From a virus, in the IMG/VR virus record IMGVR_UViG_3300048586_000061: a stretch of DNA of 41,982 nt; one strand, written 5' to 3'. Shown piece after piece: positions 6,113 through 41,982 of this stretch. Position 1 is the first letter of the stretch; the number at the start of each line of letters is the position of its first letter. The notes under the pieces were generated by a model, which saw nothing but the letters and a program-made list of their open reading frames with translations, did no database searches and was not told the origin of the DNA. A program made the position numbers and the translations under genes.

Positions 6113-6876
6113 CCGACACCTGCCAGGTCGCCAACTGCGACAACCCACTCCCCACCACCGACAACTCGCCAGCCTGCCCCGGCTGCTGGGCGCGCCACCG
6201 CCAGCGCCTCGCAGAACTCCCCTCACTCATCGACGAAGCCACCATCACCCTCACCCGCCAGAGCGCCGCAGGAAGCCACAACACAACCAAGCGGGGAGAA
6301 ACACCACTCCCCTACTCCGAGGCCGCCAGCGACGCCCTCACAGCCCTTCACGGGGCACTCAGAGCGTGGGCATCCCTAGCGGCCGACGAAGGACAGCGAA
6401 TCACCCTCACCGGCAACCCCTCGACAACCACCCTCGCCAAGCGGCTCCTCACCCTCGACTACTACCAATGGCCCCACACCCACGACGCAGCCCTCGACTA
6501 CATCGACGAACTCCGCACCCTGACCCGGCGCCTCGAGGCAGTCACAGACATCCGCCCCCAACCCTCACTCCTCGGCGTCTGCCCCACCTGCGAAACCCAC
6601 CTCTACACCCGCCCCGGAGCACCCGCAGCCACCTGCCAAACCTGCGGCGAAACACACACCACCGACGACATCAGGGCATACGCCCGCGCACACGCACCCC
6701 TCGTCACCATCGCAGACGGATCAGCCCGACTCAGGCACGCCGGCTACCTCCCACTCGACGCACGCAAGGCCGCCCGCAAGCTCACCCCCAGCGCACACAC
6801 CCCAGACGGCCAGCCCCTCTACCACCTCACCGACCTACAACATCTAGCGACATCGCCACTACATGTGGGGCGTTGA
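6109..6876 (+). CDS. Zinc-ribbon protein (two CxxC pairs). Last early gene and a possible late-gene regulator.
   Basis: ATGA overlap. C-x4-C...CPGC at the N-terminus and CPTC...CQTC centrally. Sits immediately upstream of the promoter-like/terminator region that precedes the packaging genes. Confidence 0.65.
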   Translation: MTDTCQVANCDNPLPTTDNSPACPGCWARHRQRLAELPSLIDEATITLTRQSAAGSHNTTKRGETPLPYSEAASDALTALHGALRAWASLAADEGQRITLTGNPSTTTLAKRLLTLDYYQWPHTHDAALDYIDELRTLTRRLEAVTDIRPQPSLLGVCPTCETHLYTRPGAPAATCQTCGETHTTDDIRAYARAHAPLVTIADGSARLRHAGYLPLDARKAARKLTPSAHTPDGQPLYHLTDLQHLATSPLHVGR

Positions 6877-6947
6877 CATCGGACTTGACAAGATCGGCAT
6901 AGGTAGAGGGGAGAACTCTGCCCTCACCCAGACAAGGCCCACCCATC

Positions 6948-6975
6948 GCCCACCCGGCTATGCGGTGGGCTTTGT
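6948..6975 (+). terminator. Rho-independent terminator-like hairpin
   Basis: GCCCACC (6948-6954), 9-nt loop, GGTGGGC (6964-6970), then TTTGTGCTGT. Confidence 0.6.
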
Positions 6976-6993
6976 GCTGTCTCCGGAGGATCT

Positions 6994-7284
6994 GTGACCA
7001 CCACGATCGAGCTGGACGCCTACACCCTGACCATCGGTGAAGTGTGCGAGGCCATCCGCCACGCGCAGGACACCAAGAAGCGCCTCATCCTGCGAGGCCA
7101 GGCAGCGCACCTGCCCGCCATCGAAGCCCGCATCAAGGCCCTAGTAGCGCAGTGGGAAGCCCTGCTCGACGCACAGGACGAGCCCGAGCAGCGCCCCGAC
7201 AACAGCGCCTACGTCACGCAGGGGAACTACAACCCCAGCGACATCGGCCACGGATTCCACGTGACCCGACGTGGCAGCCACTGA
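6994..7284 (+). CDS. Hypothetical protein
   Basis: GTG at 6994, 3 nt after GGAGGA (6985-6990). Track ORF. Confidence 0.65.
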   Translation: MTTTIELDAYTLTIGEVCEAIRHAQDTKKRLILRGQAAHLPAIEARIKALVAQWEALLDAQDEPEQRPDNSAYVTQGNYNPSDIGHGFHVTRRGSH

Positions 7285-7561
7285 CCCGCGCCACACCTAC
7301 GCCTACCGCCAAGCACGCGCACGGCTCAAGGCACAAGGGCTGCCCTGCTGGATCTGCCGGCAACCCATCGACTACACGCTGCGCTGGCCCAACCCGCGAG
7401 CCTTCACCGCCGACCACTACGTCGAAGTAGACGCAGGCGGACACGGGCACGACGAAGGCAACCTGCGTGCAGCTCACGGCTCGTGCAACTTCACCCGCGG
7501 CAACTACTACAGGCAGGGCCGCAACACCCGACGCGACACCAACCCCGAACGGGACTGGTAA
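7271..7561 (+). CDS. HNH endonuclease (terminase-associated type)
   Basis: CWICRQPI...TADHYVEVDAGGHGHDEGNLRAAHGSCNFTRG is an HNH motif. Sits just upstream of the terminase genes. Confidence 0.8.
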   Translation: MAATDPRHTYAYRQARARLKAQGLPCWICRQPIDYTLRWPNPRAFTADHYVEVDAGGHGHDEGNLRAAHGSCNFTRGNYYRQGRNTRRDTNPERDW

Positions 7562-7579
7562 TCGAACACGGGGGGTGGG

Positions 7580-7668
7580 GGTCACGCTCCGTCGACCTTG
7601 ACTGCTGTCGACCCGCTTGAACGTGCATTTTTTGAGCCTCTGACCTGCGACGATGCCGGAGCGTGACC
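7580..7668 (+). promoter_or_regulatory. Candidate packaging (cos/terminase recognition) region
   Basis: Perfect 12-bp inverted repeat GGTCACGCTCCG (7580-7591) / CGGAGCGTGACC (7657-7668). It encloses GTCGAC..GTCGAC (7591/7607) and a T6 run. A G-rich run CGGGGGGTGGGGG lies just upstream (7569-7581). Confidence 0.35.
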
Positions 7669-7669
7669 A

Positions 7670-7996
7670 GTGAGTGACGCCGATGCTGGCACGGAGCGTG
7701 ACGCTTCGACGGTGTATGAGGCTGTCGTAATCGAACACGCTGCGTTGACTCCTGCGCTGCGGGGCTCGTCGTTGGCGGTCCTGGTGCGTGAGCTGGCGCG
7801 GTCGATCGACGCGGCGCGTGAGCCGGCGGCGGTGTCGAACTTGTCCAAGGAGTTCCGTGCGGCGTCGGCTGCTCTCCGTGAGGCCGTGCTGCAAGCCGGG
7901 GAGCGGGGGGATCGTGTCGATGACCTCGCCGCTGCCCGTGCCGCTCGTCGGCGTGCAGCGCCCGCGGATCCTGGTACGCCCGCCGTCGGTAAGTAG
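7670..7996 (+). CDS. Terminase small subunit
   Basis: Position immediately 5' of TerL. Helical, charged 108-aa protein ending ...DDLAAARAARRRA, typical of actinophage TerS. Confidence 0.6.
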   Translation: MSDADAGTERDASTVYEAVVIEHAALTPALRGSSLAVLVRELARSIDAAREPAAVSNLSKEFRAASAALREAVLQAGERGDRVDDLAAARAARRRAAPADPGTPAVGK

Positions 7997-13560: not shown

Positions 13561-14288
13561 TGGGTTCCCAGGCGAAGATCAACCGCGCCCGAAAGAACGC
13601 CCCGGCCGGCCCGGACACCACGGTCGTCATCGCGTTCATTCACCCCGGCCAGTGCAGCGCGTACTTCACCACAAGCCTCGTCGGTTCCCTGCTGTACGAC
13701 CGCGCCACGTCTCGCCGCATCGTCGGCCTGAAGAACGAGTGGTCATCCGCCAACGTGTCGCAGCCGCGTAACAACTTGACGCGCCAGTTCCTCGAGACGG
13801 GCGCGGAGTGGTTGTGGTGGATCGACGCCGACATGGGCTGGGAGCCTGAAGCCCTCGACCAGCTGCTCGAGGTCGCCGATCCCAAGTCGGCCCCCATCGT
13901 CGGCGGTCTGGCGTTCGGTGCGTTCCACGACATGCTGTTCCCCACGATCTACCAGTTTGGCCAGGTCGACGGCCAGCTGACGACGGTTCGCATGGCTGAC
14001 TATCCGCGTGATGCGGTGGTCGAGGTTGCGGCGACGGGTGCGGCGTTCCTGCTGATTCACCGGTCGGCGCTTGAGGCGATCCGTGACCGGGAGTTCAACA
14101 AGACGTTTCCGTGGTTCCAGGAGACGGAGATGTCGGGTCAGCCGGTTGGTGAGGATCTGACGTTCTGTCTGCGGGCTCGGATGTTGGACATCCCGGTGCA
14201 CGTGAACACGGCCGTGAAGGTCGGTCACCACAAGTCAACGCTCCTGACTGAGGAGCGGTTCTTCGAGCAGCGAGAGGCGGCCCCGTGA
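13557..14288 (+). CDS. GT-A fold (family 2-like) glycosyltransferase
   Basis: VVIAFIHPG..., WLWWIDADM (DxD-like), [15 protein letters not shown]..., [10 protein letters not shown]. Typical GT2 layout. Confidence 0.7.
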
Positions 14289-16024
14289 CGGCGTATCCCG
14301 GTGCTATCCCGTCCCTGACCCGTCCGGCGTCGGGTGATCCGGCGAATGACGGCAGTGCGACGGACGCGGTTGTCGTCATCGATGCCCTGTCGGATGAGCT
14401 CGAGGCGATTGCGACTGAGCTTGGCGTTAACCCGTCGGGCTCGTCGGCGACGGTAGTCGCCCGGTTCGAGGCGCTGGACACGGCGCTGTCGGCGAAGGCT
14501 GACACGTCGGCGGTTGCTGAGCTTGCCCGTGATGCGCTGGGTTCGGCGCTGGTGGCGGGTACGAATATCACGCTGACTGTGAACGACGGCGCTGACACGA
14601 TCACGATTGACGCGGCCGGCGGCGGCGGTTTGACGGAGGAGCAGACCGAGGACATCGTCAACGGGCTCCTTGTCGCTGGCACGGGTGTGGCGCTGACGTA
14701 TGACGACGTGGCGAACACGCTGACGGTTGCGGTGTCGGGTCTGACTGCGGCGTCGATCTCGGACTTTGCTGAGGTTGCGCGGGACACGCTGGGTACGGCT
14801 CTGACTGCTGGCACGGGTGTGACGATCACGCCGAACGATGGCGCGGACACGATCACAGTGGCGACGTCGGCGATCCTTCCCACCATCGCGGACGCGAAGG
14901 GTGACCTGATCGTCGCTTCTGGTGCGGATACTGTGACGCGCCTCGCGGTGGGTACGGATGACTACGTGCTGACGGCGGACTCCGCTGAGGCGACGGGCCT
15001 GAAGTGGGCAGTTGCTTCCGGTGGCGGCTCCGCGCAGTGGACTGATGGCGCGGGGGTTCCGTCGTCGGCGTCGGGTTCCGCTGGTGAGTTCTACCGGAAC
15101 ACTTCGGCGTCGGATGCCTGGGAAGGCGAGACGATCTACGGTCCCCGTATCGCTACGGCGACGGTGACGACGACGAACCGCAAGCGCGTGTCGGGTTCTT
15201 ACGCGACGATCACGACGGCGTCGGCGCACGGGATCGTGGCGGGCGACACCGTCGAGGTGTCGGGCATGTCGGGGACGGGCTACAACGGCACGTTCCTGGT
15301 GCTGTATGTGGCGTCCTCAACGACGTTTGTCGTGAAGACGTCGACGGGCACGACCGAGGCGTCGACGGCGGACACTGGCGGCACGGTGACTAAGGCGTGG
15401 GGCCGTGCGCGGCTACTGCGTCGCATTCCGCCGCACGCCTACAACGAGGCTGCGCTGCGGCCGTCGCCTGCGGGCTGGGTGATTCGTAACATCTACGTCC
15501 CGGCCGCGAGCGTTGTGGTTGAGTCGCCGCTGGTGATTGTGGGTACGGCGTCGTACATCGTCGGTTACAACACGACGCAGGTGTCGGGCGCGTCGACGAC
15601 GGGCGAGGCTTACGCATTCTTCTGCCCTGGTGAGATCGGCCCCGGCACGTCGGTGTGGGCGTCGACGACGGTGAACGCGCCAACTGAGGCTGGCGGGAAA
15701 GCGGGCCTCGTCCTGGGTGACGGGCAGACCGGGCAGTTCGGCATCGAGATCAACATCCGCAACGACAACAAGCTCTACATCGACACGAGCTTCTTCGGCA
15801 CGGTCACGAACCTGTGGACATCGACCACGACGGCATCAAGCGGCACGATCGCGCTGCACCGTCGCGGCGGCATCCTCGAGGTGGTGGCGTCGGCGTGGGG
15901 CTGCGACCGGCGGGAGTCGATTTCGTCGTCGTACTTCGCGAACTCTGAGATCGGTGTCTTCATCAAGGACACGGCGGTCGGTCGGGTCACTGTCGCGGGT
16001 AACACGTTCGCCATCGGAGGCTGA
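14285..16024 (+). CDS. Fibre-like structural protein (579 aa)
   Basis: N-terminus ...[32 protein letters not shown] is typical of actinophage fibre/minor-tail proteins. Internal repeats [15 protein letters not shown] and [16 protein letters not shown]. Confidence 0.65.
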
Positions 16025-16028
16025 TCCA

Positions 16029-18173
16029 GTGGTTCGCACATTGGTCCAGCTCAGCGGGGAGCCCGGCCCCCCGGGCGATGACGGTGCCCCGGGCCCCCCG
16101 GGCGATGACGGTGCCCCGGGCGACAAGGGCGACAAGGGCGACAAGGGCGATCCCGGTGACCCAGGCCCGCCAGGCGACGACGGCCCCCCGGGAACCAGCC
16201 TGACCTACACGCCCGGGGCCGCATACGCCAAGGGCTCCATCGTCGCCTACGACGGGCGCATGTGGGCGGCGTCGGAGGACGTTCCCGCAGCCCGCACAGC
16301 AGTGGAGTTCATCGCCACGGTTGATGCGGATTACGCACAGTTCGCGGGCACGGTCACCTGTCCGGCAGCGATCACGTCGTCGGCGATCAGTGGCGACACG
16401 ATCATCCTTGTCAGCGACATCTTCGAGTGTGCGTCGTGGGGTTCCCTCGTCGTGTCGAACATGACGCTGGCGGTTGAGGATCACGTCACCGTGTCCGGCG
16501 AGGAGCTGGGTGCCCGCATCCACTACGCCACGGCGGGCGGCGCCACCCCCTCGTTCAACTTGGGGGACGCTCGTGGTCGCATGACGTGGATCCTGGCACG
16601 CGGTGTCGACCTGTCCGGTTCGCTGCTGACTGGCTCCGTAACCAGGTCGGGGGCCACCAACTACGCTAACGCCTACGTCCCGTATTCGGGTTCGGCGCCT
16701 CCGGCAAACTCGGTGGCGTTGCATACCGTTGCCATCGGCGCCGCTGCTGCGGTTCGTCTCGCCCCGGCTATCACAGACGGCGCGTCGTCGGTGACCCTCG
16801 GTGCCAACGGCCCGCTCGCTGGGACGACTTGGCACGGTGGCGTAACGACCCGACCCGGCCCCGAGCTGGTCGAGGACTACAACACGCAGTGGTACTGGTT
16901 CAGCTTCGGCAGTTCCACGACCTCGCAGCATCAGGCCGGCGTCCTGTGGGTGCTGGTCGCAGAGGCGGATGCGTGCCAGTCGTTCGACCACTCGAAGTGG
17001 GCGAGCCTTGCCCCCGTCGGCTCGGGTGCCGTGACGCGACTGAACGACTTGGGGATCAACCCGCGCTGGTTGCAGATCCCCGAGCCGGATAAGAACTACG
17101 TGCTCGACTTCGACTATGACCTGATCGGTTCGCTCGCCGACCCTATCGCGGTCTATCTTCCGAAGCCCGCATCGCCGGACGCCGGGCACTGGCTCGATGT
17201 CACCTACCGGGCGCCGTATGACGAGGTCACCAACAACGGCGCTCGCCTCATGTATCACTATTGGCGCGCTCCCGCCTACATCGACTTCGACCTTGGCGGG
17301 AACGTCGCCTACGGGAACCTGTGGCACCCCGGCCTCGTAGTTGAGATGGCCCCGACGCGCGGCAGCGTCGCGCACATCCGCTACTCGTGGGATCCGGTGG
17401 GGCACTACTGGTACTTCGACTCGTGGGGCGGCGACGTCGCGGTGCGCGACTACGGCAACCTGCGGACGACGAACGAGGCGCGGGCGTGGTCGCTGCGGGT
17501 GAACTTCTCCCCAGAGTTGCAGGAGCTGCCGGACTTCGCGGACACGAAGGCCGACTTGATGACCAACATTTCGGGGATCCCGCCGTCGACGCGGCGCCTG
17601 CTGGCGAAGCGGAACGTGCAGGTCGATGCGATCAGCACGCAGACGGGGTACGAGTCGTCTTCGTGGCGATACCAGAAGGATTCCGACACGTCGTGGTCGG
17701 GCGTCAACGGCTACTTCACGTCTGGTTGGAATAGTGCTACCGCGCGCTGTGCGTCGCCGGGTATCGGGGTGGCGCAGTATCCGATCATTCACGAGATCGG
17801 GCACGCCTGGGATTACAACTTCTTCCCAGCGAAGGGCTACACCAACGGCCTGATCCCGACGTTCGGTGGCGGCGTGCAGAACACGATCCACAACGAGATC
17901 GCATTGCAGGCGTTGCATACGGCGGCGCTGCCGTCGATCACTAACGTCAAGTGGGAAGCCGTTCAGGAGTGGATCGCTCAGATGATCATGCTCCGGTGGA
18001 TGGAGTTCGTTCCCGGCTACACCGCGACGAGTGACAGCGCGTGGACGACAGAGCGCAACCAGTGCGGCGGTAACCGCGCACACGGCGCGGGCACGATCTA
18101 CACCGAGTTCGTCCTCTACATGGAGGGCATCGGGGCGTTCCCGACGTCGGCTTACTGGAACTCGACGGTGTAA
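16029..18173 (+). CDS. Collagen-like (G-X-Y)15 fibre protein with C-terminal HExxH domain
   Basis: GTG at 16029, 8 nt after GGAGG. G-X-Y triplets about 16056..16190. HEIGH at 17790..17804. The track ORF extends upstream into the previous gene. Confidence 0.7.
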
Positions 18174-33531: not shown

Positions 33532-34737
33532 ATGGCGCGCAGGACCAAGGGCGACGGCTCCATCTATCAGCGAGCCGACGGCCGCTGGTGCTGCTCCATC
33601 GAGAACGGCGTCAACCCCGACGGCACCCGCCGCCGCAAGGTGCTCACCGCCAAGACGCAAGCCGAAGTCCTCGCCAAGTTGCGCGCCACCCGCCGCACCA
33701 AGGAGCAGTACGGGCACGTCCCCACCGGCGTCCCCACCGTCGAGAAGTGGCTAGCAACCTGGCTCGACGAGGTCTGCGTGCCCCGGCTCAAGCCCAAGAC
33801 CGTCGACGGCTATCGACACAAGGCAGCCCTCATCGTCGAAGCCATCGGCAAGGTGAAGCTCGACAAACTGTCCGCGTCCGACGTTCGCCGGATGCACCGC
33901 CACGCCGCCAGCGAAGGCCGCAACAACACCACCGCCATGCACTGTCACCGCGTCCTCAACACCGCCATGAAGAAGGCCGTAGCCGAGGGGCTGGTCACCC
34001 GCAACATCGTGGAGTCGGAGAAGGCGCCCAAGGCTGAGGTAGACGACGTCGTCACGTACTCCGTGCCGCAGGCCCGAGCGCTCCTCGACGCAGTATCCGC
34101 AGACCCCATCGCCGGGCGGTGGCTCATCGCCCTGCTGTACGGCGTGCGCCAGGGGGAGGCGCTAGGCCTGACGTGGGCATGCGTCGACTACAACGCCGGC
34201 AGCATCGCCCTGGACTGGCAGTTGCAGCGGCTCACCTGGCGGCACGGCTGCGGCGGCACGTGCGCCGCCAAACGTGGTGCGGCCTGCCCGCAACGCCACC
34301 ACGGCATCCCCGCAGGCATGGAGTACCGCCACCTCGAGGGCGCCTGGTTCCTGACGCGCCCCAAGCGGGACAGACGCCGCACCCTGCCCCTGCTCCCCAT
34401 CGTCGAAGCAACCCTGCGCGCCCGCTACGACCTCGCCGCCAGCCAGCCCAACCCTTACGGCCTCGTGTTCGCCCGCCCCGACGGGCGACCCTTCGACCCG
34501 GCACTGGACAACGCGGCATGGCACGCCTGGCTCAAAGCCGCCGGACTGCCCGACTCCAAGTTGCACTCAGCTCGGCACACGGCGGCGACGCTGCTGCAAG
34601 CCCTCGGAGTTCCCGAGGCCGTCCGCATGGAGATCCTGGGGCACTCCGTGGCGACGACGCAGCGCGGATACGCACACGTCGACCTGTCGTTGCAGCGCGA
34701 GGGCTTGGCGCAGCTCGGCGCCGCGCTCGAGGGCTAA
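33532..34737 (+). CDS. int: Tyrosine integrase
   Basis: GGAGGG RBS. N-terminal arm-binding GSIYQRADGRW. Catalytic region GVRQGEALGL...HSARHTAATLL...LGHSVATTQRGYAHV (R..HxxR..Y). Confidence 0.9.
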   Translation: MARRTKGDGSIYQRADGRWCCSIENGVNPDGTRRRKVLTAKTQAEVLAKLRATRRTKEQYGHVPTGVPTVEKWLATWLDEVCVPRLKPKTVDGYRHKAALIVEAIGKVKLDKLSASDVRRMHRHAASEGRNNTTAMHCHRVLNTAMKKAVAEGLVTRNIVESEKAPKAEVDDVVTYSVPQARALLDAVSADPIAGRWLIALLYGVRQGEALGLTWACVDYNAGSIALDWQLQRLTWRHGCGGTCAAKRGAACPQRHHGIPAGMEYRHLEGAWFLTRPKRDRRRTLPLLPIVEATLRARYDLAASQPNPYGLVFARPDGRPFDPALDNAAWHAWLKAAGLPDSKLHSARHTAATLLQALGVPEAVRMEILGHSVATTQRGYAHVDLSLQREGLAQLGAALEG

Positions 34738-35075
34738 GGCGCAAGCATCCGTTCGGCGACCTCGACGACCCCGACCTCGACCTGCGGCCCGTCATGGAGG
34801 GGACACGGGGGCCACGGGTCGAGGCGGAGCGGAACCGGTGTCAGGCACGGGCAGATCAGTGAGGGCAGCACGTCGGCCCACCCCGCGCCATTGTTGGCCG
34901 CGGGCACGCAGTAGTAGGCCCGGAACTCCGCCGCCTCTGATGGCGTGTAGAGGCGGCTGGCCTGGTCGTAGCAGTCGTCGTAGCGCATGACCGGTGGCAT
35001 GCACACGACGGTGACGCAGCCGCCGCGTGCGACGTGGATCTCGTCGACCTCGTCGACGATGGCGACCCTGAGCAT
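34734..35075 (-). CDS. Cys-rich hypothetical protein (113 aa), lysogeny-side moron
   Basis: Minus-strand codons have very GC-rich third positions. Lies downstream of the repressor gene on the same strand. Its stop overlaps the integrase stop (CTAA). No domain recognised. Confidence 0.6.
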   Translation of the reverse strand: MLRVAIVDEVDEIHVARGGCVTVVCMPPVMRYDDCYDQASRLYTPSEAAEFRAYYCVPAANNGAGWADVLPSLICPCLTPVPLRLDPWPPCPLHDGPQVEVGVVEVAERMLAP

Positions 35076-35081
35076 CTGGCG

Positions 35082-35096
35082 CCCCCCCCCCCCCCC
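35082..35096. repeat. Homopolymer C15 (G15 on the coding strand of the flanking genes)
   Basis: 15 consecutive C. On the minus strand it lies 6 nt upstream of the ATG at 35075. Confidence 0.9.
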
Positions 35097-35158: not shown

Positions 35159-35554
35159 TCAGTTTCCACGCCCTAGTATGCGCGCCACCTCCGACAGCGC
35201 CTCAGCTTGGTCCGCCGCCGCCCGCTGGGCGCGCTCGAACGCCGCCTCGATGGCGGACCGTTCGCCCTCCGTCAAGGTCACGGACTGGCCCACAACCCAC
35301 GCGGGCGCCGACGTCACAGTGGGGGGCTGATAGTCGGGGTCGCACAGCGCCCGCGCCGTACCGATCGGCCACCCGAACGCCGTGTCCAGCTTGCGGCAGG
35401 TCTGCGCGCTAATCGGCTTGTCGTGCCGGCCGCCGACAACGTCCGTCATGGTGGTGCTCGAGGGTCCGCCATGATCCTGTACCTCTTTCCAGGTCCACCC
35501 CGTCGCGTCAACGGCGGCGCGGACGCGCTCCGTGAGCGCAGGTGTGATTCTCAT
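35159..35554 (-). CDS. HTH (Xre/CI-like) immunity repressor candidate
   Basis: Divergent from the Cro-like gene. ...WKEVQDHGGPSSTTMTDVVGG...ISAQTCRKLDTAFGWPIGTARAL is HTH-like. Start is uncertain (ATG 35554 or 35566, TTG 35605). Confidence 0.6.
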   Translation of the reverse strand: MRITPALTERVRAAVDATGWTWKEVQDHGGPSSTTMTDVVGGRHDKPISAQTCRKLDTAFGWPIGTARALCDPDYQPPTVTSAPAWVVGQSVTLTEGERSAIEAAFERAQRAAADQAEALSEVARILGRGN

Positions 35555-35696
35555 GTCGGTAACCATGTGGGCAACTATGCCGCAAAAGCCAGCAGCAATC
35601 TGCAAACGACAACCGTGTGAGACGTTCGATTAGCAGTTTGCTCACCGGCGTGTCGAGCCCCTGACCTGCATCTTTGGCCCAATTTGCCGGTGATGC

Positions 35697-35726
35697 TTGC
35701 CCTTGGCTCACGTTTTGCTCTAGATT
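35697..35726 (+). promoter_or_regulatory. Early rightward promoter giving a leaderless transcript
   Basis: TTGCCC (35697-35702), 18-nt spacer, TAGATT (35721-35726). The ATG at 35733 lies 7 nt downstream of the -10, with no Shine-Dalgarno sequence. Confidence 0.5.
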
Positions 35727-35732
35727 GCTGCC

Positions 35733-36008
35733 ATGACCAGCAAGGCACCCAAGGTGACCCCGCCCCTCGTGGGCCTTGGCCACCTCCGCAAGGCCCACGG
35801 TTACACCCTCGACGACGTCGCCGAAGGCGTGCAGGCCATCACCGGACGTCGTTACACCGTCGGCGCCATCAGCGCCGTCGAGGGCGGACTGCGCCGCCCC
35901 TCCCCGTCCCTGCTCGCTGCGCTCCTTGAGTTCTACGAGATCACCGACGCGCCGCAGGTCTACCCGGAGCCCCGCCTGGTGCCGCGCCCAGCCCGGAGCG
36001 CCGCCTGA
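35733..36008 (+). CDS. Cro-like / Xre-family HTH regulator
   Basis: GLGHLRKAHGYTLDDVAEGV...ISAVEGGLRRPSPSLLAALLEFYEI is a classic HTH_XRE pattern. Confidence 0.75.
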   Translation: MTSKAPKVTPPLVGLGHLRKAHGYTLDDVAEGVQAITGRRYTVGAISAVEGGLRRPSPSLLAALLEFYEITDAPQVYPEPRLVPRPARSAA

Positions 36009-36190
36009 TGGACGCCCTCTCCTACTCCGTGCAGGACGCCGCTGCCGTGTGCGGCGTGTCCCCCGACACGATCCGCCGCGCCATCCGCGCCAAGGAACTC
36101 CCCGTGCGCTACCCGACGAGCCGCCCCGTGATCCTGCGGGCCGACCTCGAGGCGTGGCTGGCCGCCGCCCCCACGGAGCGTGCGTCTTGA
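36008..36190 (+). CDS. xis: Excisionase-family / MerR-like HTH DNA-binding protein
   Basis: YSVQDAAAVCGVSPDTIRRAIRAKELPV....ILRADLEAWL. Confidence 0.65.
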   Translation: MDALSYSVQDAAAVCGVSPDTIRRAIRAKELPVRYPTSRPVILRADLEAWLAAAPTERAS

Positions 36191-36681
36191 GCACCTACGC
36201 CACGAACCTCGCCTACCTCGCCAACGACCCCCACTGGGTCTACGTCATCTGGAACGGCGACGAGTGCGTCTACGTCGGAATGACCTCGGACTGGCGAAAC
36301 CGCACCGGCGTCCACGCGAAGAACTACCTCGCCACGGGGCGCGCAACGCACATCGACGTGTGGGCCGCAGCGAACGGCCGCGCCGACGCCGAGACGGTCG
36401 AGCAGCAGACGATTCGCGACCTGGACCCCGTCGACAACCGCCAGCACAGCCCCCGCACCGAGAGCCGCCGTCAGGCATGGGCCTACTTCAGCGAGTGGCG
36501 CCACGCCTACGAGCGCATCAGCTACGACTATCCGCCGAACGTGTGGGCGCTCGACCACGACTCGGTGGCGAAGGCGCACGCCGCCCTCGACCTGTGGGGC
36601 TACCGCGACCACTCGCAGTTCATCCCCGACGAGGACCACCTCACCCGGCTCCGAGAGCGGTACGCCCGCCTCACGGCCTAG
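36187..36681 (+). CDS. GIY-YIG nuclease-domain protein
   Basis: TTG at 36187 (TTGA overlap). WVYVIWNGDECVYVGMTSDWRNRTGVH...ETVEQQTIRDLDPVDN follows the GIY..YIG..R..H..E..N order. Confidence 0.55.
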   Translation: MSTYATNLAYLANDPHWVYVIWNGDECVYVGMTSDWRNRTGVHAKNYLATGRATHIDVWAAANGRADAETVEQQTIRDLDPVDNRQHSPRTESRRQAWAYFSEWRHAYERISYDYPPNVWALDHDSVAKAHAALDLWGYRDHSQFIPDEDHLTRLRERYARLTA

Positions 36682-36691
36682 CCCCCATGTC

Positions 36692-36760
36692 GCAGCGGCG
36701 CCCCTCTCTCCGCCGCTGCCCCGCCGCCGGGCGTCCGACCGCCCCCCGACGCCCGGCGGC
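36692..36760 (+). terminator. Two tandem hairpins (9-bp and 13-bp perfect stems)
   Basis: GCAGCGGCG pairs with CGCCGCTGC (36692/36711). GCCGCCGGGCGTC pairs with GACGCCCGGCGGC (36723/36748). Confidence 0.55.
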
Positions 36761-36796
36761 AACCCCAGACCACCTCACGACCACTGAGGAGCACTA

Positions 36797-36979
36797 ATGC
36801 ACATCACGACAGTAGGTATCGAGTTCCATGCCGACGACCCCATCGAGGGCATCGACACGGGAACTGTCGCCATTGGTGGCGCGTGGATGTACTCCGGCGA
36901 GCCCGACGCATGGGAGCGGCTCGCGGCTGAGGCACTGTCCGCCGCCAACGCCCTCCGCGTCCCAGGCGGTGCGGCATGA
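36797..36979 (+). CDS. Hypothetical protein
   Basis: ATG after GAGGAG. Track ORF. Confidence 0.6.
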   Translation: MHITTVGIEFHADDPIEGIDTGTVAIGGAWMYSGEPDAWERLAAEALSAANALRVPGGAA

Positions 36980-37149
36980 GCGACTACGACCGAGCCCCCA
37001 ACCCGTTCGAGATCCGCGAGTGGGCACTGACCAGCGCCGTGCGGCTCCTGGCTTCCTCGGCCACGACGGCACACCCGATCAGCCTCGGCGCGAACACCGT
37101 TGCGGTGGCGCGCAAGTTCGAGGCGTACTTGGCTGGGGATAAGCGGTGA
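36976..37149 (+). CDS. Hypothetical protein (57 aa)
   Basis: ATGA and GTGA overlaps at the two ends. Below the track cutoff. Confidence 0.45.
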   Translation: MSDYDRAPNPFEIREWALTSAVRLLASSATTAHPISLGANTVAVARKFEAYLAGDKR

Positions 37150-37376
37150 AGCGCCTCGGTTGGGCGGAGCTGTTCTGCCTCGGCGTCCTCGCCATCCTCG
37201 CGCTGAACATCGGCGCCCACTACGGCTGGCTGCCCGCACTGCTCGCCCTGTTCGTCCTCGTCGCCACGGCTCGCATGTTCATCGCTGACGCGCAGGTCGA
37301 TGAGGCGTTGGACCGGCTCGACGGTGTGCGCCAGGAGCACGTCATCGACGGGCATATCGGGGGCCGTCGTGGCTGA
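37146..37376 (+). CDS. Membrane protein (two TM segments)
   Basis: LFCLGVLAILALNI and LPALLALFVLVA. Confidence 0.6.
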   Translation: MKRLGWAELFCLGVLAILALNIGAHYGWLPALLALFVLVATARMFIADAQVDEALDRLDGVRQEHVIDGHIGGRRG

Positions 37377-38100
37377 GCTGCTGTTCAAGTTCACCGCTTC
37401 CGGACGCCGCCCCACGCACGCCGGCAACGGGTTCGTGTGGCCCGCGCCGTCCGGGAAGCGCCCCGGCAAGTGGACTGACCGGGTGCCCGAGGTGGTGCCG
37501 TGCGAGTCCGGGTATCACCTGACGACAGCGGCGCACCTCCTCGACTGGACGCACGCCGAACTGTGGGTGGCGGAGGGTCGCGGCGTCCGGGTCGACGCTG
37601 GCAACAAGGTGGCGTTTGAGTCGGCGCGGCTGGTGCGTCGCGTTGATGCGTGGAATGAGCGGACGGCGCGGGAGTTCGCGTGCTGGTGTGCTGAGCAGGC
37701 GTTGCCGTTCGCGGACGAGAAGACCCGCGCGGTGTGCGTGGACACGATCGCGGTGGCACGTGCTTACGCCGCTGGTAGTGCCACAGTCGCACAGTTGGAC
37801 GCCGCACGGGACGCCGCACGGGCCGCCGCACGGGACGCCGCATGGGCCGCCGCACGGGACGCCGCACGGGCCGCCGCACGGGACGCCGCATGGGACGCCG
37901 CATGGGACGCCGCACGGGACGCCGCACGGGCCGCCGCACGGGACGCCGCACGGGCCGCCGCACGGGCCGCCGCACGGGCCGCCGCACGGGCCGCCGCACG
38001 GGCCGCCGCACGGGACGCCGCATGGGACGCCGCATGGGACGCCGCATGGGACGCGCAAACCGCGCACCTCCTCGACATGTTGGGACTCACCGATGACTGA
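37369..38100 (+). CDS. Two-part protein: globular N-terminal domain plus 84-residue (AA[R/W][D/A])21 repeat
   Basis: GTG at 37369 (8-nt overlap). N-terminus GNGFVWPAPSGK...CESGYHLT...LWVAEG..., then W.ERTAREFACWCAEQALPF..., then the repeat. Confidence 0.65.
   Translation: MAELLFKFTASGRRPTHAGNGFVWPAPSGKRPGKWTDRVPEVVPCESGYHLTTAAHLLDWTHAELWVAEGRGVRVDAGNKVAFESARLVRRVDAWNERTAREFACWCAEQALPFADEKTRAVCVDTIAVARAYAAGSATVAQLDAARDAARAAARDAAWAAARDAARAAARDAAWDAAWDAARDAARAAARDAARAAARAAARAAARAAARAAARDAAWDAAWDAAWDAQTAHLLDMLGLTDD
37801..38052 (+). repeat. 12-bp tandem repeat GCCGCA[C/T]GGG[A/C]C x 21
   Basis: 21 contiguous units counted by hand. Only positions 7 and 11 of the unit vary. No stop codon in any of the six frames. 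Confidence 0.95.
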
Positions 38101-38281
38101 CGCCGTCCGCGCGCCCCTCTCCCGCTGCCAGTCCGCGCTTCACGTCGCCCTCAACGCCTGCCTGGACGCCATCGACGCCGGCGACGTCACCCTCGAAACG
38201 GGACAGCAGATCATCGACTACACGTCGCAGGCGCTCGGTGCGGCGCACCTCGCGGCGAGAAACGACGAGGTAAGCGCATGA
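38093..38281 (+). CDS. Hypothetical protein
   Basis: ATG at 38093, overlapping the upstream stop by 8 nt. In frame with the tail of track ORF 37616..38281. Confidence 0.5.
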   Translation: MTDAVRAPLSRCQSALHVALNACLDAIDAGDVTLETGQQIIDYTSQALGAAHLAARNDEVSA

Positions 38282-38952
38282 GCCTGACCATCCTCCCCGA
38301 CCTCGAGCAGGGCAGCGACGCATGGCATGACCAGCGCCGCGGAATCGTCACCGCGTCGATGGTGGGCCGCCTGCTCACGTCCACCGGCAAGGTCGCCAAC
38401 AACGACACCAGCCGAACCCTGACCGCGCAGCTCGTCGCGGAACGGATCACGGGCTGGACGGATCCGGTGTTCGTGTCCGACGACATGCTGCGCGGCCACG
38501 ACGACGAGCCCCGCGCCGTTGAGGTGTACGCCGAGCATTACGCACCCGTCGAGACCGTCGGGTTCATGGTGCGGGAGTTCGACCACGGCATGCGGCTGGG
38601 CTACTCACCGGACGGGCTCGTGGGTGATGACGGGCTGATCGAGGTCAAGTCGCGCCGAGCCAAGAAGCAGCTGCAGACGATCCTCGAGGACGAGGTTCCC
38701 GCCGAGAACATGGCGCAGTTGCAGTGCGGGCTACTCGTCAGCGGGCGCGCATTCGTTGACTACGTGAGCTTCTGCGGCGGAATGCCCTTGTACGTCAAGC
38801 GCATCGAGCCGGACCCCGAGTGGTTCGAGGCCATCGAGCAGGCCGTCACCAACTTCGAGGTTGCCGCCGCCCTCATGGTCGCCGACTACGAGGCCGCCAT
38901 CACCGGCCGACCAACCACCGAGCGCGTCATCGAACTGGAAATGGTCCTGTGA
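38278..38952 (+). CDS. YqaJ-type viral recombinase exonuclease (lambda Exo-like)
   Basis: EQGSDAWHDQRRGIVTASMV...SPDGLV..GLIEVKS...Q.QCGLLVSG matches the PD-(D/E)xK YqaJ pattern. Confidence 0.8.
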   Translation: MSLTILPDLEQGSDAWHDQRRGIVTASMVGRLLTSTGKVANNDTSRTLTAQLVAERITGWTDPVFVSDDMLRGHDDEPRAVEVYAEHYAPVETVGFMVREFDHGMRLGYSPDGLVGDDGLIEVKSRRAKKQLQTILEDEVPAENMAQLQCGLLVSGRAFVDYVSFCGGMPLYVKRIEPDPEWFEAIEQAVTNFEVAAALMVADYEAAITGRPTTERVIELEMVL

Positions 38953-39737
38953 CGCCCGACGAGCGCGCGGCTCTGTGCGCGCTGGCAGAGGCGCAGCGGG
39001 GCGACGGTAACCCCCTGAGCGACGGAGTGCTCGCTCTGCTCGTCGACCACGCCGACGCGCTGGATGCGGTCGAGGTCTGGCAGGAGCGCGAGGGCCGGGC
39101 CGTGTTGGAGATCCACTACCTCGTGGGACAGAACCTCGAAGCCGCCGAGCGGGCACAACGGGAGATCGAGCGGCTCCGTGACGTAGCGGCCCGCGACGAC
39201 GGCCTCGTCCTGTGCGACTGCGAGCGGGGCCACATCGTCGCCCTCGCCTGCATCGGTGACCGTGCGGCCGGTGAGTGTCCCCTGTGTGAACGGGACGACG
39301 CACGCGACGCGGAACACCGGGCCGCGGCGCGACTGGTCGAGGCTACGGCGCAGATCCGTCGGCTGGCGGACGAGCGTAACGCGCTAAGGGAGATCCGCGC
39401 GGGCCTGTCGGATCGGGTTGACGTAGCCGAGGCGACGATGGTCGACCTGTTCGCGGACCTGGCGGAAGTCAAGCGCGAGAACGAGTTGCTGATGATTGCT
39501 CACGCGGGCAAGGCGACCGAGTTTCGCGCCGAGCGTGACGAGGCGCGGGCTGCTGCGCGGGACGCCAACGACCGACTCGACAAGGTGCGGGCGCTGCACC
39601 AGCCCGGTGTGGTCTACGGACTCGCCGACCAGTGCCTCGGCTGCCATGAGGCCGTTCCCGACGGCGCGGGAATCGACTACGCCGACTGCCCCACTATCCG
39701 CGCGCTCGAAACCTCTGAGACCACAACGGAGCCGTGA
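38949..39737 (+). CDS. Coiled-coil, Cys-containing hypothetical protein
   Basis: GTGA overlap. In frame with track ORF 38820..39737. Confidence 0.6.
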   Translation: MTPDERAALCALAEAQRGDGNPLSDGVLALLVDHADALDAVEVWQEREGRAVLEIHYLVGQNLEAAERAQREIERLRDVAARDDGLVLCDCERGHIVALACIGDRAAGECPLCERDDARDAEHRAAARLVEATAQIRRLADERNALREIRAGLSDRVDVAEATMVDLFADLAEVKRENELLMIAHAGKATEFRAERDEARAAARDANDRLDKVRALHQPGVVYGLADQCLGCHEAVPDGAGIDYADCPTIRALETSETTTEP

Positions 39738-40453
39738 TGGACCTCACTGAAAGCATCGCCCCAAAGTCCGACCAGCTGAACGCCGAAGACCTGCTGACCG
39801 GGCCGCGCACGTTCACCGTGGACAAGGTCAGCAAGGGCAGCGCCGAGCAGCCCGTCGACATTCACCTCGTCGAGTTCCCTGGCCGCCCGTTCCGCCCCAG
39901 CAAGACGGTGCGCCGGATCCTGGTGAACGCGTGGGGGCCGGACGCGAACACGTACACGGGTCGCCGGATGACGTTGTACCGCGACCCTGCTGTGAAGTTC
40001 GGCGGCATGGACGTCGGCGGCATCCGCGTGTCGCATCTCAGCCACATCGAGAAGCCGCTGTCGGTCGCGCTCACCGTGTCCCGCGGTAAGCGGCAGGCAT
40101 ACAAGGTGCTGCCCCTCGTGGACGCACCCCCGCCGCGAACGCGCGGCCCGCAAACGGACGACGGGGCGGCGCGTGCGACCGCGCTAACGGATGGCGCGGA
40201 GGTTACTGACCTTCCCTCCGCCGCCGACGCCCCCGCCCCGTCGTCTGACCGACTGTTCAACGGCGGCGACCGGGAACGTGCCGCGAAACGCATGTTCGCC
40301 GAGTTCAACAAGCACCCTGACCTGGCGTCCCGTGACGACCGCCTCGGATTCTGCGGACTCACCGTCGGCCGGCCCATCGCATCGTCGGAGGACTTGACGA
40401 CCGCTGAGCTGCTGGCCGTGGCGGACGCGCTGGCTAAGCGGGTGACGGAATGA
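39734..40453 (+). CDS. Conserved-looking early protein of unknown function, next to the exonuclease
   Basis: GTGATG start region. Track ORF. It could be a recombination partner, but no SSAP motif was recognised. Confidence 0.6.
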   Translation: MMDLTESIAPKSDQLNAEDLLTGPRTFTVDKVSKGSAEQPVDIHLVEFPGRPFRPSKTVRRILVNAWGPDANTYTGRRMTLYRDPAVKFGGMDVGGIRVSHLSHIEKPLSVALTVSRGKRQAYKVLPLVDAPPPRTRGPQTDDGAARATALTDGAEVTDLPSAADAPAPSSDRLFNGGDRERAAKRMFAEFNKHPDLASRDDRLGFCGLTVGRPIASSEDLTTAELLAVADALAKRVTE

Positions 40454-40638: not shown

Positions 40639-40868
40639 TGCCGCCCCGCACGGTGGTCCTCACTGCCGCCGCTGCCCTGTTCGCCTGCTGGTTCGTCTAC
40701 ACCCGCCCCCTCGCCGCGCTCGCCATCGTCGGTATCGCCGTGGTCGTCCTCGGCTGCATCGGGTTCGTGGGGACGGTCGGCTACTTCATCTTCGGATGGC
40801 GCACGGCACCCGCCACTGAGGTTGAGCTGGACGACGACGAGGCCGACGCGGCTGGTGCGCCGTGGTGA
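40638..40868 (+). CDS. Membrane protein (two TM segments)
   Basis: TGATG overlap (GTG 40635 is an alternative start). VVLTAAAALFACWFV and LAIVGIAVVVLGCIGFVGTVGYFIF. Confidence 0.6.
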   Translation: MPPRTVVLTAAAALFACWFVYTRPLAALAIVGIAVVVLGCIGFVGTVGYFIFGWRTAPATEVELDDDEADAAGAPW

Positions 40869-41095
40869 CCGTCGACGCTGCCCACAACCCGTGTCAGGGC
40901 TGCGGCACCAACCTGGGCGACAACCCGCCCGCCACCCACTGCGGCGACTGCCCGCCGTGGACCTGCCCGACCTGTGGCGACACCGACTCGATGACCGCCC
41001 CGTGCGGCTGCTGGGTCACGTTCGACGGGCTCCCGCTCGCTGACATCAAGGGCCATCTGGCCGCACTCGATCTGTCCGTTGGGGGCACCCGATGA
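40865..41095 (+). CDS. Cys-rich zinc-ribbon-like small protein (paralog of 41831..206)
   Basis: GTGA overlap. CQGC...CGDC...CPTC...CGC. Confidence 0.65.
   Translation: MTVDAAHNPCQGCGTNLGDNPPATHCGDCPPWTCPTCGDTDSMTAPCGCWVTFDGLPLADIKGHLAALDLSVGGTR
40890..41016 (+). repeat. Copy B of the repeat (internal)
   Basis: Identical to 1..127. Identity with copy C extends upstream: 40873..41016 = 41839..41982 (144 nt exact), and 152 nt with one mismatch starting at 40865/41831. Confidence 0.95.
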
Positions 41096-41574: not shown

Positions 41575-41834
41575 GCCTGCACGGGACAGTCCAGATCAAC
41601 GGGCGCGTCATCGCCACATGGTCTGCCCAGCGAATCACCAACACCGAGGGCACCCCGAGGCCCGAACAGGTCAGCACCTACCGCTGTGCGGTCGTTCCCC
41701 AACCGAACCGGGACGTGGACAACTTCCCGCTCGACCGCCAGTTTGACCTCGACCACCGTTTCGCGGACGGCTTCGCCCGACTGGCTGCGCGGGTGCTCGA
41801 CACCTACGCGGACATCATGGGAGCCGAGTCGTGA
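41571..41834 (+). CDS. Hypothetical protein
   Basis: ATGA and GTGA overlaps. Track ORF. Confidence 0.6.
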   Translation: MSLHGTVQINGRVIATWSAQRITNTEGTPRPEQVSTYRCAVVPQPNRDVDNFPLDRQFDLDHRFADGFARLAARVLDTYADIMGAES

Positions 41835-41982
41835 CCGCCGACGCTGCCCACAACCCGTGTCAGGGCTGCGGCACCAACCTGGGCGACAACCCGCCCGCCA
41901 CCCACTGCGGCGACTGCCCGCCGTGGACCTGCCCGACCTGTGGCGACACCGACTCGATGACCGCCCCGTGCGGCTGCTGGGT
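41831..41982 (+). CDS. Cys-rich zinc-ribbon-like small protein, 5' portion (continues at 128..206 if circular)
   Basis: GTG at 41831 in a GTGA overlap. VTADAAHNPCQGCG... Runs off the window end. Confidence 0.65.
   Translation, partial: MTADAAHNPCQGCGTNLGDNPPATHCGDCPPWTCPTCGDTDSMTAPCGCW
41856..41982 (+). repeat. Copy C of the repeat (window 3' end)
   Basis: Identical to 1..127. Copies B and C are 966 bp apart. Confidence 0.95.

Follow-up and report, generated by a model that had tools for sequence, protein, structure and literature searches.

A twelve-nucleotide coding repeat with two variable positions is the hallmark of a large, catalogued but uncharacterised phage protein family

The stretch of DNA analyzed here, called the window throughout, is the 41,982-nt viral record IMGVR_UViG_3300048586_000061. 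It holds the genome of a tailed temperate phage (68% GC) encoding a portal, a prohead protease, a major head protein, a tape measure protein, and an integrase. On its plus strand, 21 head-to-tail units of the form GCCGCA[C/T]GGG[A/C]C occupy positions 37801–38052 (252 nt) and are read as part of a single gene, 37369..38100, referred to below as the repeat gene. The array is real, and it is not a unique oddity: it belongs to a protein family that is catalogued but uncharacterised.

The repeat gene (37369..38100, plus strand) encodes 243 amino acids plus a stop codon, as delimited by translation of the open reading frame (ORF) and by comparison with homologues. The GTG start is supported by the fact that homologues begin at the same residues (VAELLFKF or MTELLFKF). 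Four segments follow one another on the plus strand. Residues 1–94 (37369..37650) form a β-rich, DUF7666-like domain, identified through an AlphaFold2 model, a Foldseek comparison with BFVD, and the PF24703 matches of relatives. Residues 95–144 (37651..37800) form an Imm5-like helical region with the motif WNERTARLFAC.CAE, defined by conserved columns (W95, R101, F103, A104, and C107) and by the PF21805/PF14423 matches of relatives. The array proper (37801..38052), located by Tandem Repeats Finder, by splitting into 12-mers, and by pattern search, covers residues 145–228 and accounts for 252 of the 732 nt of the ORF. It is followed, in frame, by a conserved C-terminal tail, AQTAHLLDMLGLTDD, and the stop codon (38053..38100); the tail carries the family motif Q-T-x-x-L-x-x-x-L. 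The original prediction, made from the sequence of the window, took the array for the C-terminal third of a genuine gene, which is supported by the tail QTAHLLDMLGL that follows the array in frame and is conserved across the family.

Tandem Repeats Finder reports the array at 37797–38054 with a period of 12, 21.5 copies, 93% matches, 0 indels, and a score of 411; the runner-up array in the window scores 114. Splitting 37801–38052 into 12-mers yields four unit types: GCCGCACGGGCC (eight copies), GCCGCACGGGAC (seven), GCCGCATGGGAC (five), and GCCGCATGGGCC (one). Ten of the 12 unit positions are invariant; position 7 is C in 15 units and T in six, and position 11 is A in 12 and C in nine. Named by the residues at the two variable codons, the units run RD RA RD WA RD RA RD WD WD RD RA RD RA RA RA RA RA RD WD WD WD. 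No stop codon occurs across the array in any of the six frames. The number of units, the ten invariant positions, the unit order, and the six open frames originally described were all reproduced exactly by these two procedures. The pattern GCCGCAYGGGMC has 21 exact matches in the window, every one of them inside the array; with up to one mismatch allowed, it has 29 window matches versus 5.0 ± 2.4 in shuffled sequences.

The array peptide is (AA[R/W][D/A])21, in which 51 of the 84 residues are Ala. Codon bias does not explain the uniformity of the units, since GCA, which makes up 8% of the Ala codons in the confidently called genes of the window, is used at the second codon of all 21 units, and CGG, which makes up 25% of the Arg codons in those genes, encodes all 15 array arginines. 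Units 1–4 and 5–8 are one nucleotide apart, and the array also contains a run of five RA units and a run of three WD units; such blocks and runs are signs of recent slippage and block duplication. It should be noted that, with NGG as the third codon and a fourth codon that starts with G, the coding strand bears a GGG every 12 nt, i.e., 21 runs in the window array. These runs constitute a possible G-quadruplex- or R-loop-prone tract, which might itself favour slippage; lineages with AAYS, AANS, or AAWS units are without them.

Homologues of the full 243-residue protein number more than 3,356 (phmmer). With the N-terminal 144 residues alone as a repeat-free query, 1,898 representatives of 50%-identity clusters are retrieved at E ≤ 1e-3 and 762 at E ≤ 1e-10. 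Among the 140 best representatives matched through the N-terminal part, 103 contain at least five AAxx units and 18 contain at most two, most of the latter looking like truncated fragments. All sequences inspected share one architecture: the N-terminal domain, the helical WNERTARLFAC.CAE segment, a variable Ala-Ala-x-x array, and a conserved tail with the consensus (E)R.WQT..L...L, of which the window version is AQTAHLLDMLGL. On IMG/VR viral contigs, mostly 15–90 kb long, 100 relatives were found, and a narrow pattern scan of 185,579 species genomes returned only ten matches, all on contigs of metagenome-assembled genomes. Searches by tblastn of 50,697 cultured phage records with the N-terminal 150 residues and with the relative P0027 gave zero matches. 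This absence from cultured phage genomes helps explain why the family has not been studied; literature searches for Imm5 together with phage, DUF7666, Imm5_like, alanine-rich tetrapeptide repeats, and peptide strings returned no relevant paper.

In several phages (L095, at 6287–7702, and L032, L053, L063, and L092), the repeat gene is present as a pair of paralogues, which are adjacent or at most 1–2 kb apart and have different arrays. One further member, P0270 of the P0020 cluster, combines the usual head and array with an unusual C-terminal tail (…AARKDFNELARECFWAHL), which could reflect a frameshift, a recombinant, or an assembly chimera.

Comparison with profile libraries places the family in known but functionally silent territory. 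In PHROGs, the window protein matches only families without an assigned function (phrog_18326 and phrog_8332). Relatives that are 40–55% identical to it match PF21805, PF14423, and PF24703 above or near threshold, in alignments that span the helices and the Ala-rich repeats. P0007, P0019, P0027, and P0100, which are phmmer relatives of the window protein at E values of 1e-40 to 1e-49, score 38–45 bits against PF21805 and 21–29 bits against PF14423 (gathering threshold for the pair, 25 bits), and a precomputed PF21805 annotation is attached to many of the homologues listed. Against PF24703 (DUF7666; gathering threshold 27 bits), P0014, P0019, and P0027 score 29.3, 26.7, and 23.6 bits, respectively. 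A Foldseek search of predicted viral structures in BFVD with the AlphaFold2 model of the window protein finds "DUF7666 domain-containing" proteins at E values of 1e-3 to 5e-3, together with uncultured-phage members of the same family. By transitive homology and predicted fold, the window protein would itself be a member of DUF7666. Such arrays characterise a very large family already in Pfam and are not peculiar to the window phage, a point that the original prediction had missed.

Variation within arrays was quantified across this family. Each gene contributed its longest in-phase stretch in which six or more units starting with Ala-Ala follow one another without interruption, giving 50 entries (48 distinct arrays). 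This selection fixes unit positions 1, 2, 4, and 5 and leaves the others free. Over the 50 entries, the mean minor-allele fraction is 0.024 at position 3 and 0.028 at position 6, both synonymous, 0.435 at position 7, 0.10 at position 8, 0.045 at position 9, 0.061 at position 10, 0.326 at position 11, and 0.052 at position 12. As in the window, therefore, within-array variation family-wide falls mainly on codon 3 at its first base and codon 4 at its second, these two positions being roughly 7–18 times more variable than the synonymous positions 3, 6, 9, and 12 (0.33–0.44 vs 0.024–0.052). Codon 3 takes the form NGG, which reads as Trp (TGG), Arg (CGG or AGG), or Gly (GGG), and codon 4 usually reads GAY, for Asp, or GCY, for Ala. 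Of the array arginines, 290 of 317 (91%) are NGG-coded, compared with 36% of those encoded by the N-terminal part of these genes; GGG encodes 164 of the 179 array glycines (92%).

The synonymous sites are uniform inside each array and different among arrays, with 11 Ala-Ala codon backbones represented in the 48 distinct arrays. Uniformity within but not between arrays points to concerted evolution at the DNA level. The pattern in these sequences points to units that are kept alike by concerted evolution while variation is maintained at two residues, and this two-residue variation appears to fit diversifying or balancing selection better than neutral tolerance. The suggestion that concerted evolution or selection lay behind the high identity of the units is supported by the combination of synonymous uniformity and two-nucleotide variation in about 50 arrays.

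The arrays also evolve more rapidly than the sequence around them, for which L141–L144, four contigs of one JGI sample series, give the strongest evidence. L141, L142, and L143 show 0 differences in the 400 nt upstream of the repeat gene, 0–1 differences in 438 nt of N-terminal coding sequence, and 1–3 differences in the 1000 nt downstream. Their arrays contain 22, 18, and 24 units, respectively, and that of L144 contains 29; the four arrays are set apart by the gain or loss of whole units and by changes of the first base of NGG. Copy-number polymorphism had been predicted for the array and is seen here in relatives, with 18, 22, 24, and 29 units on near-identical flanks; likewise, the proposed search for relatives with AA(R/W)(D/A)-type repeats found them, with differing unit counts. 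The 90%-identity cluster of the L141–L144 type includes proteins of 199, 207, 235, 243, 251, 259, and 279 residues, and a cluster in the window's own clade includes proteins of 172, 212, and 224 residues. In both clusters the length differences map to the array and are all multiples of four residues; being multiples of 12 nt, these changes keep the reading frame. The arrays behave as frame-preserving variable-number tandem repeats of the contingency type, as shown directly in the relatives rather than in the window phage itself.

For the window phage, an exact search of metagenome contigs with the DNA of the tail gave 0 matches to near-identical copies, and a protein-guided scan for such copies returned only relatives of at most 89% identity. 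The nearest relative, L001, has 89% DNA identity to the window in the N-terminal part, where 31 codons differ synonymously and 10 non-synonymously. It shares the backbone GCCGCA-NGG-GMC with the window; its 20 units are in another order and include Gly units absent from the window. From the N-terminal divergence (~0.22 synonymous differences per codon), ~0.9 consensus differences between the two arrays would be expected over the four synonymous unit sites, and 0 were observed. A special explanation for the identical synonymous backbones was considered and dropped, as 0 versus ~0.9 expected is unremarkable.

The window array can be resolved by an assembler, provided that reads are long enough. 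The longest exact repeat within 37701–38150 is 59 nt, all k-mers of k ≥ 77 across the array are unique, and the ends of the window overlap by 127 nt. It is the two variable positions that make the array assemblable. The concern that the array exceeds common k-mer lengths, so that its copy number may be unreliable, does not hold in that form, since the relevant limit is the longest exact repeat and not the length of the array. A mixed population could nevertheless stand behind the single consensus path of the window array.

The window protein was modeled with AlphaFold2 from a 21-sequence alignment, with a mean predicted local distance difference test score (pLDDT) of 88 and a predicted template modeling score (pTM) of 0.76, and the arrangement of its helices was read from secondary structure and confidence. 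The model consists of a β-rich domain (residues 1–91; strands 3–10, 49–52, 64–76, and 81–91, with pLDDT > 90), two helices (97–114 and 117–134), and two further helices of 48 residues each (140–187 and 191–238), most of both being made up by the array. The turn between the latter falls at units 11/12, where confidence is ~57, and the second helix ends in the conserved C-terminal tail. The relative P0109, which has Gly-containing units, gives a similar model from a 55-sequence alignment (pLDDT 91; helices 142–186 and 191–232). In both proteins, we infer, the array is predicted to fold as an antiparallel two-helix hairpin; with the turn near mid-array in both models, the conserved tail would return to the head.

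The globular character originally ascribed to the N-terminal part agrees with the high-confidence modeled domain. The proposal of a single long amphipathic helix needs correction: the array is predicted to be helical, but it is modeled as two helices in a hairpin, and it is amphipathic only locally. Its hydrophobic moment, taken at 100 degrees per residue, is 0.56 over 11 residues and falls to 0.11–0.17 over at least 36; the moment peaks at 90 degrees. With a period of four residues, the Ala stripe winds around the helix once per nine units. Single-sequence and profile searches found no solved structure significantly resembling the window protein.

As a separate structural observation, C45 (37501–37503), H50 (37516–37518), and C107 are invariant or nearly so across the family, and C105 is mostly conserved, the codons of C105 and C107 lying in 37681–37689. 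These four residues may bind a metal or act as a catalytic pair, joining the β domain to the first helix.

Several known systems invite comparison. Transcription activator-like (TAL) effectors are encoded by tandem repeats that are nearly identical in DNA, and their specificity resides in two hypervariable residues per unit. The array resembles them in its near-identical DNA units, its two variable residues per unit, and a copy number that depends on the allele; it differs in that the unit has four residues instead of 33–35, in that there is no evidence of nucleic-acid binding, and in that a hairpin is predicted here, whereas TAL repeats form a superhelical solenoid. The likeness is one of pattern only and not of homology. 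Ala-rich helical proteins include the type I fish antifreeze proteins (with 11-residue repeats), the "Alacoil" antiparallel coiled coils, and single α-helix domains, and an Asp at i with an Arg at i+3 can form helix-stabilising salt bridges. The array shares with these proteins its very high Ala content, the prediction of a long helix, and the potential for such salt bridges. Unlike them, it has a period of exactly four, not seven or 11, is rich in Trp and Arg, and has no match among solved structures. A canonical heptad or hendecad coiled coil, or an Alacoil, was rejected because the period is four rather than 3.5–3.67 and because the moment, highest at 90 degrees, disappears at 100 over stretches of at least 36 residues. 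The targets of diversity-generating retroelements are also phage proteins that vary at a few codons near the C-terminus; here, in contrast, variation lies among tandem units and is accompanied by copy-number change. We rejected this assignment because the window ORFs scanned contain no reverse transcriptase, the window contains no template repeat, and the A at unit position 6 is invariant.

The closest named relationship is with immunity proteins. Relatives match the Pfam models Imm5_like/Imm5 and DUF7666, the N-terminal fold agrees, and the order of the domains is constant in the family. Zhang et al. (2012, PMC3482391) predicted by comparative genomics that Imm5 confers immunity to DYW-deaminase and CdiA-CT toxins, and the Pfam name "Imm5-like putative immunity protein" derives from that prediction. 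Immunity genes of polymorphic toxin systems, in this sense, lie next to a toxin gene or in a polyimmunity locus. The repeat genes differ in occurring in early phage operons and not beside toxins or in polyimmunity loci, and the window protein differs in having no Pfam match of its own. A polymorphic-toxin immunity context was rejected for the family: the neighbours in the window are a hydrophobic ORF, a small ORF, and a YqaJ gene, and the 96 loci compared have no conserved toxin neighbour.

These neighbours are closely packed. Upstream, a 76-residue hydrophobic ORF (37146..37376, plus strand), without a family match in Pfam and PHROGs scans, ends in a stop codon that overlaps the GTG start of the repeat gene. 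Downstream, the ATG of a 62-residue ORF (38093..38281, plus strand) overlaps the stop codon of the repeat gene (ATGACTGA); a small ORF in the same position is also present in the close relatives L001, L002, and L003. Next comes a YqaJ-type recombination exonuclease (38278..38952, plus strand; PF09588, E = 1.2e-12; phrog_149, E = 1.2e-36), a neighbour that is kept in the window's clade (L001, L002/L003). The structural genes and the integrase are followed in the genome by leftward genes and then by a rightward helix-turn-helix (HTH) gene that opens the early operon. The repeat gene lies after the integrase and the HTH gene, in this operon, with start and stop codons overlapping both neighbours. 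As no promoter-like or terminator-like sites were found within 35500–39000, the repeat gene is probably carried on a polycistronic early transcript. Farther upstream in the operon is a GIY-YIG-like ORF (36202–36681; PF01541, 22.0 bits against a cut-off of 22.6), which may be an insert of the homing-endonuclease type.

Genes that recur near the repeat gene in relatives encode SSB, ERF, YqaJ, DNA methylases, and an HNH endonuclease. By eye, the most frequent neighbour cluster resembles RecT, though it has no Pfam match; a PF03837 RecT is annotated beside P0118. Two individual neighbours deserve mention. A gene with ArdC-N/MPTase-PolyVal (anti-restriction-like) domains precedes the repeat gene by ~1.1 kb, within one operon, in L141 (978–1865) and L142 (675–1562), and an Acb2/Tad1-hairpin gene lies ~3 kb downstream of the repeat gene on the P0118 contig. 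The links to counter-defence neighbourhoods that these genes provide are anecdotal.

With regard to the rest of the genome, the host is probably an actinobacterium. The only megablast match of positions 36000–40000 to cultured phages is a 145-nt segment, 79% identical to the Arthrobacter phages Kumotta and MargaretKali, which falls outside the repeat gene. Nucleotides 1–127 of the window are identical to its final 127 nt (within 41828–41982). An exact overlap of this length suggests a circularly closed assembly at k = 127, in which case the genome would really be 41,855 bp long. This end sequence has a third, internal copy (40862–41016): a 155-nt direct repeat, with 99% identity and 966-nt spacing, corresponds to the 5′ ends of a pair of small Cys-rich (CxxC) paralogues. 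A homopolymer of 15 C residues (35082–35096) between the leftward genes 34734–35075 and 35159–35605, beside the integrase, could be a slippage-prone tract or a weak point of sequencing or assembly. Collagen-like Gly-x-y repeats (27-nt and 9-nt tandem repeats, 16065–16150; Pfam Collagen, E = 7e-10) occur in ORF 15717–18173, which encodes a probable tail protein of 818 residues. This ORF overlaps ORF 14285–16024 by ~300 nt in a different frame, which indicates a miscalled start or a frameshift.

We are confident of the anatomy of the family and of its mode of evolution; its function we infer. In our opinion, the repeat gene probably, though by no means certainly, encodes an early accessory protein in which a conserved head bears a fast-diversifying helical stalk, the stalk acting as a binding surface in phage–host or phage–phage conflict. 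Judging from the DNA pattern, the arrays would change by slipped-strand mispairing or unequal recombination, which would also keep the synonymous sites uniform. As the AlphaFold2 models have it, the array would fold back into an antiparallel two-helix stalk, bringing the conserved tail to the head, and the number of units would set the length of the stalk. Small Ala residues may line the contact between the helices, while the two variable residues may decorate the surface. Diversifying selection would then act on the stalk as a fast-changing binding surface, directed early in infection at a variable factor of the host or of a rival phage, in the role of a counter-defence or immunity-like binder. 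Two-residue variation combined with frame-keeping length change is a signature typical of arms-race molecules, and early operons are the usual location of counter-defence genes.

A number of points weigh against this proposal. The window protein has zero matches in Pfam at E ≤ 1 and zero in PADLOC and NCBIfam, a fold search of its model against the PDB found nothing at E ≤ 0.001, and no functional evidence was found for the family. There is no conserved partner gene among the 96 loci (the largest neighbour cluster occurs in seven of them), so that the target cannot be guessed from context. AlphaFold2 is the sole source of the hairpin, with a confidence of ~57–70 around the turn; a perfect repeat offers no sequence cue to where the turn should be, and a period of four residues is not that of a canonical coiled coil. 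L141–L144 and the length variants of the clusters are short-read metagenome assemblies, which are able to mis-assemble repeats. Finally, mutation targeted at particular sites, and not selection, could lie behind the surplus of variation at two nucleotides.

The array might instead be a passive helical spacer in which low complexity is tolerated, the alternation of Arg, Trp, and Gly and of Asp and Ala is neutral, and the variable residues recognise nothing. No particular length is fixed, copy number spanning 3–28 units (median 14); unit variants are joined by single-nucleotide steps, and no partner gene is conserved, all of which suits a spacer. Under neutrality, however, the synonymous positions 3, 6, 9, and 12 should vary as much as positions 7 and 11, and they are many times less variable; moreover, the same residues recur on 11 codon backbones in distant phages, which argues that the mixture of residues is kept. 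We therefore regard a mere spacer as unlikely. A further alternative is site-directed hypermutation, in which a diversity-generating retroelement, a deaminase, or methylation-dependent C-to-T change at CGG would produce both variable nucleotides. Such a process would account for the restriction of variation to two of 12 nucleotides in many lineages, for the CGG/TGG alternation in the window, which sits at CpG, and for the point changes at the first base of NGG between otherwise identical contigs. Yet neither a reverse transcriptase domain nor a template copy of the unit was found among the scanned ORFs and elsewhere in the window, respectively, and the invariant A at position 6 is unlike adenine-directed retroelement mutagenesis. 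Across the family all four bases occur at position 7, and the change at position 11 is an A/C transversion, so that no single chemistry fits both; hypermutation is in our view a distinctly poor prospect.

It is still less probable that the repeat acts mainly as DNA or RNA, i.e., as origin iterons, a recombination hotspot, or a G-quadruplex tract, with coding secondary. What the family conserves is the Ala-Ala-x-x peptide pattern and the in-frame tail, not a DNA motif: consensus units vary (GCTGCC, GCGGCG, GCAGCC, and others), the AAYS, AANS, and AAWS lineages have no GGG, and length always changes by multiples of 12 nt. These facts tell against a nucleic-acid element even though the synonymous sites are invariant within the window array, 21 GGG runs are evenly spaced on its coding strand, and it lies in the early replication and recombination region beside an exonuclease gene. 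The explanation to which we give the least credence of all is that the assembly created the array or misjudged its number of units. The window does resemble a short-read de Bruijn assembly, given its exact 127-nt end overlap, and the 252-nt array exceeds typical read length; against this stand the short (59-nt) longest internal repeat with its unique longer k-mers, and about 95 independently assembled relatives that carry arrays of similar size with frame and tail intact.

Returning to the diversifying stalk, a bolder version of it would make the stalk a programmable recognition module, the order and number of units jointly dictating its specificity, be it for a variable defence protein of the host or for some linear polymer. 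One four-residue unit rises 6 Å along a helix, which is close to the residue spacing of an extended nucleic acid strand. Slippage and recombination would in that case let phages re-program specificity on ecological time scales. We offer this version as a long shot.

Whatever its function, the pattern found across the family is worth reporting: near-identical 12-nt units, variation at two nucleotides, and frame-preserving change of copy number between otherwise identical phage genomes, of which the arrays appear to be the fastest-changing part. The family is very abundant (1,898 clusters at 50% identity) and almost confined to uncultured phages. If the stalk merely acts as a spacer, the arrays would still offer a clear instance, in nature, of a coding minisatellite that evolves in concert. 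If it binds a host defence factor or a toxin, the family would represent a new and widespread class of counter-defence or immunity proteins with a readable variability code. And if it should prove to be a programmable module, it would be a new fast-evolving class of counter-defence or recognition proteins, with a logic like that of TAL effectors or retroelement targets.

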